A stretch of DNA of 64,000 nucleotides from Escherichia coli (GCF_024298765.1 NZ_CP101210.1); one strand, 5' to 3'; positions 6,437-7,002 are shown, counted from the first letter of the stretch. Made by a program: numbers and translations. The notes: generated from the sequence alone by a model not told the origin.

Positions 6437-6650
6437 CTGCATGACAAAGTCATCGGGCATTATCTGAACATAAAACACTATCAATAAGTTGGAGTCATTA
6501 CCGACGAAGCGATAGCGATAATGACTGAAAGCGGAAAAATAAAAACAAATTGAATAATGTGTTTGGTAATGAATTTATCGGGGGGAATTGGGCATATCTA
6601 CCGCTTACGTCGAGCCGCTCACACCCGGTCAATGACCTGACAATCTCCCG

Positions 6651-6674
6651 GCAAGTCCCGACGTCGGGACTTGC
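6651..6674. repeat. Perfect 24-bp palindrome GCAAGTCCCGACGTCGGGACTTGC in unassigned segment
   Basis: Direct reading; first 12 nt are the exact reverse complement of the last 12. Confidence 0.8.
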
Positions 6675-7002
6675 GCCCCTGACACCGAAAAATAGCAGGA
6701 ACCCGCTCGCTACGGGTCCTCAGCTCAGTGCAAACCTGACTCAGCTCCTGCATTGCATCCCCGAAATTACCACACTCAGTACTTCATCACCTGCCACCAA
6801 TACCCGTGTCAGTCCTTCGTGACCTGACGCAATTACCCGACTCAGAGCTTCAGAGTCAGCCGCCGGTACCTGCCCGGTGCTCGCCCCTGCGCAACCAAGA
6901 TAAATCGACCATTGGCAGACTGCGATCATTCGTATGCATCGCTGATGACGCGCCCGAAAAACGCGTTAATGTAAGTGTGGAACAATACTTTGTTACTATG
7001 CA

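Follow-up and report, generated by a model that had tools for sequence, protein, structure and literature searches.

A palindrome-bearing segment beside rafY in Escherichia coli: a probable composite scar with an orphan IS66-family right end

What occupies the half kilobase between an IS1 copy and the raf operon in Escherichia coli, and what is to be made of the perfect palindrome found there? The segment is part of a stretch of 64,000 nucleotides (GCF_024298765.1, NZ_CP101210.1; hereafter the window), in which the segment is bordered by the end of IS1 at 6502 and by the rafY stop codon at 7003–7005, as the original prediction had it. Among E. coli chromosomes, 281 have the whole 500 bp at an identity of at least 99%, and a coverage of 80% or more was reached in 289 genomes. 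In RefSeq, the segment is mostly without annotation in hundreds of E. coli chromosomes. The original prediction, made from the sequence alone, held that neither a convincing open reading frame nor a known element explains this stretch, and it regarded the palindrome as long enough for a dimeric protein-binding site or a hairpin. We conclude, with a probability of roughly 85%, that the segment is a composite scar, consisting of the tail and flank of a BRO-N gene and the right end of an IS66-family insertion sequence without its genes, and that it has no autonomous function. The features are summarized in Table 1.

Table 1. Features of the segment and its borders, with positions counted in the window
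Feature	Position	Strand	Basis or remark
IS1 copy with replaced interior (~6150–6436)	5733..6502		right end adjoins the segment
3' end of a BRO-N domain gene, truncated by IS1	6503..6553	+	translation compared with the M18 protein
Native 3' flank of the BRO-N gene	6554..6611	+	comparison with strain 53
Orphan right end of an IS66-family insertion sequence, without tnpA/B/C	6612..6988	+	homology to tnpC-to-IRR spacers
Perfect 24-bp palindrome, predicted lineage-specific stem-loop of the IS66 spacer	6651..6674		
Terminator-like hairpin followed by a T-run	6690..6719	-	terminator scan, alignment columns, folding
Direct-repeat array	6735..6874	+	CCTGACTCAG at 6735, then units at 6776, 6809, and 6842
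Crossover interval CCCGAAAAACGCGT	6953..6966		alignment A6
Degenerate right inverted repeat (IRR) GCGTTAATGTAAGTGTGGAACAATAC	6963..6988	+	intact copies read GCGTCAATATGAGTTCGCCGGAACAATAC
rafY glycoporin gene, last gene of the raf operon	7003..8397	-	open reading frame; Pfam Porin_8/RafY, E = 3.5e-148

The segment starts with the last 17 codons and the TGA stop codon of a BRO-N gene, in frame from 6500. Positions 6500–6553 translate to TDEAIAIMTESGKIKTN followed by the stop; in E. coli M18, the same sequence ends an intact BRO-N domain gene of 263 amino acids, whose product has the C-terminus ...IDEAIVIMAESGKIKTN. In strain 53, where BRO-N is followed by YagK/YfjJ, the common flank extends up to ...CTACCGCTTA(C/T)G(T/C)C, beyond which the sequences diverge, and homology to IS66 elements begins at 6612. 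The shared flank and the subsequent divergence in strain 53 thus define the gene tail and its native flank, and place the junction between flank and relic at 6611/6612. The claim that no convincing open reading frame is present was therefore only partly correct: it applies to the relic, in which no frame is conserved, and not to positions 6503–6553, the in-frame 3' end of BRO-N.

The adjoining IS1 copy is not intact itself, and only insA is still open. In its interior, ~287 bp of IS3-family (IS2-like) sequence (6150–6436) have taken the place of ~285 bp; they comprise the 3' end of a transposase gene of this type with an integrase-core fragment and the terminal repeat. The SMS-3-5 annotation lists an 'IS1-like element transposase' and a partial 'integrase core domain' at this copy, and positions 6000–6149 and 6437–6502 match IS1A in L015 at 100%. 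The terminal repeat at the segment border is that of IS1.

The remaining 377 bp (6612–6988) correspond to the non-coding stretch from the tnpC stop codon to the IRR of IS66-family elements. In a nine-sequence alignment, homology started ~20 nt after the end of tnpC and ran to the inverted repeat. In the ISEc49/ISSfl4-like subgroup, this spacer is a non-coding stretch of ~220–360 bp that separates the tnpC stop codon from the terminal inverted repeat; the identity of 6612–6988 to the subgroup spacers ranged from 71 to 89%, depending on the lineage. On plasmid pRK1 of E. coli W, the match to 6779–6976 is located 149–346 nt after the stop of an IS66-family tnpC and before the IRR ...GTCAATATGAGTTCGCCGGAATATTAC; pRK1 and ISEc49-type spacers showed 79–89% identity over 6776–6976. 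In E. coli E26, the match to 6623–6744 starts 33 nt after the tnpC stop, and the identity of the E26 type was 78%. An intact element on the Salmonella diarizonae plasmid CP053333 (CP053333.1, ~143.8–146.7 kb), with tnpA (109 aa), tnpB (137 aa), and tnpC (533 aa), has a spacer that is 84% identical to 6612–6795. Spacer homology was seen for the loci L002, L006, L007, and L013. The tnpC genes upstream of the spacers encode the Pfam domains DDE_Tnp_IS66, zf-IS66, LZ_Tnp_IS66, and IS66_C; in L006, DDE_Tnp_IS66 was found in tnpC with E = 1e-92 and TnpB_IS66 in tnpB. The RefSeq/PGAP names of the close relatives are ISEc49 family and ISSfl4.

The genome scan for tnpC relatives used N-terminal peptide patterns and yielded only four loci. 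Further spacers were collected by tblastn on plasmids and with a degenerate DNA pattern on metagenomes; in the latter, 22 of the 58 matches passed the homology filter, all but one of them visibly spacer-like, and these matches belonged to the three classes already known from the other spacers. The presence of the relic sequence between tnpC and IRR of intact IS66-family elements was confirmed by an identity check. The order of elements in the spacer is also alike, with a stem-loop, an A-rich tract with a small hairpin, CCTGAC/ACTCAGTACTTCA repeats, and the IRR, and a copy on an EDL933 plasmid has the same IRR terminus, ...GGAACAATAC, as the relic.

Unlike the ISEc49/ISSfl4-like elements, which comprise tnpA-tnpB-tnpC and are flanked by an 8-bp duplication, the relic has none of the three genes; the BRO-N tail and IS1 lie upstream instead. 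Nothing similar to a left terminal inverted repeat was found at 6612, no IS end adjoins the relic on this side, and the flanks, CTTACGTC on the left and TTTGTTAC on the right (GGATCAAT in M18), show no 8-bp target-site duplication, whereas a neighbouring intact IS66 copy in M18 does carry one (TTACGGAT). The relic IRR is degenerate, with a deletion of 2–3 bp and substitutions relative to intact copies. Two further differences are that two relic lineages have recombined here and that the perfect palindrome is restricted to this island lineage. Lacking transposase genes, left end, and target duplication, and having a damaged IRR, the 377-bp unit cannot move; without tnpA/B/C, left repeat, and 8-bp duplication, it is to be regarded as an IS relic and not as an IS. 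Judged by homology, 6612–6988 is thus the right end of an IS66-family element and lacks the features of an intact one. The assertion that no known element explains the stretch has to be withdrawn, as the segment can largely be matched to a gene remnant and a known element: BRO-N tail and flank, followed by an orphan IS66-family right end.

Several observations concern the IS66 relatives in their own right. The relic starts with GAGCCGCTCAC (6612–6622), which is very similar to the outermost bases of the right repeat in another IS66 subgroup. In M18, these bases read GGCGAGCCGCTTAC (L004 8165–8184), and the repeat is located ~36 bp after the tnpC of that subgroup. The BRO-N flank immediately before the relic also reads CCGCTTAC. 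The resemblance of the relic start to the other right repeat suggests that the long spacer might be DNA added past an ancestral end. The relatives are also mosaic: the identity between L002 and L013 rises from ~68% to ~90% some 140 nt before the tnpC stop (element position ~2270 of 2773) and remains high through the spacer, which indicates that right-end modules appear to have been exchanged between IS66 elements. In L007 (5126–5443) and L012 (3560–3865), tandem or nested IS66 right ends were found, in which an IRR is directly joined to a second partial spacer starting at ACTCAG (...GCACAC joined to TCAGTACC, and ...GGAACAATAC joined to CTCAGTTC). Their occurrence at ACTCAG in both loci suggests either repeated duplication or a favoured insertion point at this motif. 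Finally, the scr (sucrose) operon of an IncF plasmid (L015 3350–3735) is also bordered by a gene-less IS66 spacer, which extends from 6 nt after the position of the tnpC stop to an intact IRR adjoining scrR.

The palindrome itself, GCAAGTCCCGACGTCGGGACTTGC, is present at exactly the coordinates first given for it and occurs once in the window. By chance, ~0.004 perfect 24-bp palindromes are expected per 64 kb, and in shuffled sequences no match to the palindrome was obtained even when 3 mismatches were allowed. The presumed hairpin potential was likewise confirmed by folding: a stem of 10 bp with a 4-nt loop was predicted, with −19.6 kcal/mol (z = −3.6) as RNA and −12 kcal/mol (z = −3.9) as DNA. 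By length, GCAAGTCCCGACGTCGGGACTTGC ranks second among the perfect palindromes of the window. The longer one, TCAGCTTCCACCCGTGCACGGGTGGAAGCTGA (14482–14513), is a perfect palindrome of 32 bp inside the rafR coding region, where it spans codons ..VSASTRARVEAE.. just after the LacI-type helix-turn-helix; ~1.5e-5 such palindromes are expected per window. In rafR alleles that have diverged to 90%, 80%, and 74% identity, TCAGCTTCCACCCGTGCACGGGTGGAAGCTGA persists only in imperfect form, for example with 14 of 16 pairs.

Among the relatives, the palindrome is perfect (12/12 pairs) in the window, M18, and L031-type sequences. Intact E26-type elements (three loci and metagenome copies) have GTAACTCCTGACGTCAGGACTTAC with 11/12 pairs; four of its five changes form two compensated pairs, and by a hand calculation the chance of such pairing arising through random substitution is ~0.003–0.03. 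The intact Salmonella element is intermediate (10/12 pairs), and the copy in strain 32F4 is decayed. In intact relatives with the palindrome, its position is ~60 nt after the tnpC stop. Of the palindrome, the spacers of Cedecea, Enterobacter, and Edaphovirga retain the right arm alone (GGACTTGCG), together with the sequence that comes after it (GGACTTGCGCNCCTGA). A different hairpin, with a stem of 17 bp and a loop of ~33 nt, directly follows the stop in spacers of the pRK1/ISEc49/ISSfl4 type; for the pRK1/ISEc49 type, one compensated change between L002 and L013 and several mismatched copies were found. The Salmonella Irumu element (L018) has the hairpin GGCGCAG-TCTC-CTGCGCC. These alignments show the window palindrome to be a local and perfect version of the stem-loop ~60 nt after the tnpC stop of intact relatives. 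Different lineages repeatedly have a predicted stem-loop a short distance past tnpC, but without conservation of its sequence, and the perfect 24-mer is confined to one lineage. Hairpin-templated repair can likewise produce compensated changes in a DNA palindrome, and no selection is needed for this.

The recurring CTGAC and ACTCAG words that had been pointed out downstream of the palindrome are real as well, and some of them recur with a 33-bp phase. Four copies of CCTGAC and three of ACTCAG were counted in 6612–6988, exclusively on the + strand (P < 0.001, 2000 dinucleotide shuffles). TCAGNNCTTC is found at 6776, 6809, and 6842, also on the + strand only and with a spacing of exactly 33 bp (P < 0.001, shuffles). 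TRF and a repeat search revealed the corresponding 33-nt tandem repeat at 6776–6874, the units of which begin with TCAG(T/A)(A/C/G)CTTC. The CCTGAC and ACTCAGTACTTCA-like motifs are co-oriented, and no part of the spacer is better conserved in the family than the repeat array. The ACTCAGTACTTCA-like motif is confined to the spacer and to the + strand in four intact elements.

Between palindrome and array, a small hairpin with the core AGCGG-N4-CYGCT followed by ATTT(T/A) is located on the minus strand (6719–6690), which is the transcription strand of raf. It was kept in all seven spacers compared, from three lineages (alignment columns 88–101), with only G-C to G-U changes. The hairpin was predicted to fold with −16.5 kcal/mol. 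The consensus scan reported two overlapping terminator-like sites in this region, and the minus-strand site does match the stem and T-run pattern of an intrinsic terminator. The predicted hairpin is oriented such that it could stop transcription entering the IS at its right end, or end an antisense transcript.

The palindrome shares with 3'-end hairpins, such as intrinsic terminators and REP-like stabilisers, a GC-rich perfect stem downstream of a coding region, this being tnpC in intact elements and rafY, on the other strand, here. Unlike these, it has no U-run on either strand (the + strand continues with GCCCCTGAC, the − strand with CGGGAGATT), is not repeated in the genome, and matches no Rfam family. 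As no U-run follows, it is not a canonical intrinsic terminator, and the terminator scan did not report it. Rfam searches of both strands of 6300–7200 gave no match with E-values up to 1. A dispersed E. coli repeat of the REP/BIME, ERIC, or box C type was rejected, since there is one copy in the window and the palindrome is found in at most two places per genome (median one copy).

Signs of constraint on the spacer were sought in several ways. Folding z-scores of the first 100 nt after tnpC were modest and inconsistent across elements (−0.3 to −3.4). RNAalifold detected no net covariation on either strand of seven spacers, and the pattern of G-U pairs versus mismatches in these spacers does not identify a structured strand. 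The promoter scan found no promoter-like site in the relic or near the palindrome. The two longest open reading frames of the segment (62 and 90 aa) had no Pfam match; no reading frame is conserved, with open frames that vary from lineage to lineage, and the window and M18 differ by an indel of 14 nt. A protein-coding gene was therefore rejected beyond the tail at 6503–6553. Spacer identity between L002 and L013 was 88%, against 48% at four-fold degenerate tnpC sites; since the recombination breakpoint lies ~140 nt before the tnpC stop, this excess reflects mosaicism and is not proof of constraint. Literature searches returned nothing on this IS66 spacer region or its function, and no description of the biochemistry of IS66-family transposition was found in the searchable literature.

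At the window locus, the palindrome most likely persists as an inert relic. For intact elements, a mechanism may be proposed, tentatively and with the odds somewhat against it: the palindrome would be a hairpin in the 3' untranslated region of tnpC or in the right end, whose effect would be to stabilise the transposase mRNA, to terminate it, or to restrict transcription through the end of the IS, and the phased CCTGAC/ACTCAGTACTTCA repeats would be putative right-end-specific binding sites for transposition proteins. A more specific and, in our view, unlikely reading takes the right end as a functional module, whose repeats and palindrome, the latter as a putative dimer site, would bind TnpA/TnpC or a host factor. 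Mu and Tn7 have asymmetric ends with subterminal repeated transposase-binding sites, and the likeness consists of several co-oriented, phased short repeats inside one end only, here candidate binding sites. The motifs form the most conserved islands of the spacer across lineages, they are co-oriented and spacer-confined in four intact elements, and the 33-bp phase corresponds to about three helical turns; the symmetric changes in both half-sites of the E26 type and the joining of foreign IS66 right ends at the ACTCAG motif in two loci point in the same direction. However, the left end has no such motif, several sub-lineages do without the palindrome, and other IS66 subgroups have ~36 bp after tnpC yet show target duplications; the literature search yielded nothing on the region. 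We consider it improbable that the 220–360-bp spacer of this subgroup is an undescribed functional module of which the window palindrome is a relic. Such a module would combine the stem-loop after tnpC, the T-run hairpin of the opposite strand, and the phased, co-oriented CCTGAC/ACTCAGTACTTCA repeats, and might act as an assembly site for transposition proteins that is specific to the right end, as a site where sister copies preferentially insert, or as a template from which a small regulatory RNA is made.

The remaining readings assign a role to the relic at its present location. It might serve the raf operon as a co-opted 3' end, in which case the minus-strand hairpin and then the palindrome would terminate or stabilise the raf mRNA. 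No convincing terminator of rafY's own was found (the hairpin at 6975–7020 has only −3.5 kcal/mol, z = +0.2), the terminator-like site lies 285–313 nt downstream of rafY on the raf strand, both structures fall within 285–350 nt, and the palindrome has −20.2 kcal/mol on this strand. This role is nevertheless quite doubtful: the terminator-like stem is short and found by consensus scan only, the palindrome has no U-run, and raf plasmids exist without both structures, which are thus not needed for raf function. Very unlikely is an operator of a dimeric transcription factor, RafR or another, for neighbouring genes. The perfect dyad of 12 + 12 bp with a CG centre would suit such a site; yet it is located inside an IS relic older than raf at this locus, no promoter-like site is nearby, and its absence from raf plasmids makes an operator unlikely. 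Its lineage specificity, single copy per genome, and position in a decayed relic also argue against a dedicated operator. It is, moreover, 6.8 kb away from the rafA promoter region, where a LacI-type operator-like sequence, CCGAAACGTTTCGG, is present. This perfect 14-bp palindrome (13527–13540), flanked by the stop codon of rafR (13584) and the start codon of rafA (13488), resembles a LacI-family operator with central CG and is presumably a RafR operator.

Just as hard to sustain is the reading of the 377-bp unit as a MITE-like element mobilised in trans by IS66 transposases, or as a gene for a small protein. Gene-less spacers starting just after the position of the tnpC stop do recur beside raf and scr operons and in islands, and one RefSeq record annotates a hypothetical protein of 62 aa on the minus strand (6741–6929). 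Open frames vary by lineage and are interrupted by indels with lengths not divisible by three, and Pfam gave no match. A MITE was rejected, as there is neither a left inverted repeat at 6612 nor an 8-bp target duplication, and the left junction is identical in all island copies, indicative of a single event.

How the composite scar came to lie beside rafY can be read from its distribution. With plasmids, the segment shares only 6776–6976 (80–95% identity). The palindrome-bearing half (6503–6790) is found on E. coli chromosomes and not on E. coli plasmids; in a wider plasmid collection, it was present only on one Salmonella plasmid and, weakly, on Enterobacter plasmids. The comparison with raf plasmids that had been suggested for the segment was informative: the last ~180 bp are in common, and the palindrome is absent there. 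Raf plasmids such as p123 (L014 3640–3670) carry a shorter relic of another lineage, with the window's exact degenerate IRR and the same 14 bp between the IRR and the rafY stop codon; both are identical on many IncF raf plasmids. Their relic starts near the equivalent of 6810, and neither the palindrome nor the minus-strand hairpin is included. The junction between BRO-N and relic, in turn, is also present in two raf-free islands, M18 and a food-metagenome contig (L031), in which the relics each have an intact inverted repeat and different DNA beyond it. The junction therefore predates raf.

An alignment of the window with L031, p123, M18, and pRK1 (A6) shows the window to agree with the raf-free island sequence as far as 6952 and with the raf plasmid from 6967 on, which places a crossover within the intervening 14 bp (L031 5095–5110). 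From this pattern, we infer that the raf module probably joined the tRNA-Phe island by homologous recombination inside the relic. The island is located at tRNA-Phe (16105–16180, minus strand), with a P4-type integrase (14744–15958) directly beside rafR; next come the core genes encoding a DUF554 protein and ornithine decarboxylase. Solo IS ends and relics act as portable homology for the exchange of gene modules, as in IS26- and IS1-flanked modules. The segment belongs to this known kind of object: a relic common to raf plasmids and the chromosomal island, with the crossover inside it. Compared to the flanked modules, the comparison here covers one side of the raf module.

The anatomy of the segment, its IS66 identity, and the recombinant nature of the relic were established in this analysis. 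The observation that drew attention to the locus is real but ordinary, as it concerns an already known kind of element, and the palindrome itself gives no pointer to a new regulatory system. A stretch that is blank in hundreds of RefSeq E. coli chromosomes can now be annotated as the tail of a BRO-N pseudogene and the relic of an IS66-family right end, and the relic probably explains the arrival of a plasmid-type raf operon in the tRNA-Phe island. To our knowledge, transposition in the IS66 family is poorly characterised. Of wider interest is the role that the right-end spacer of this IS66 subgroup, unusually long and rich in repeats, may play in transposition.
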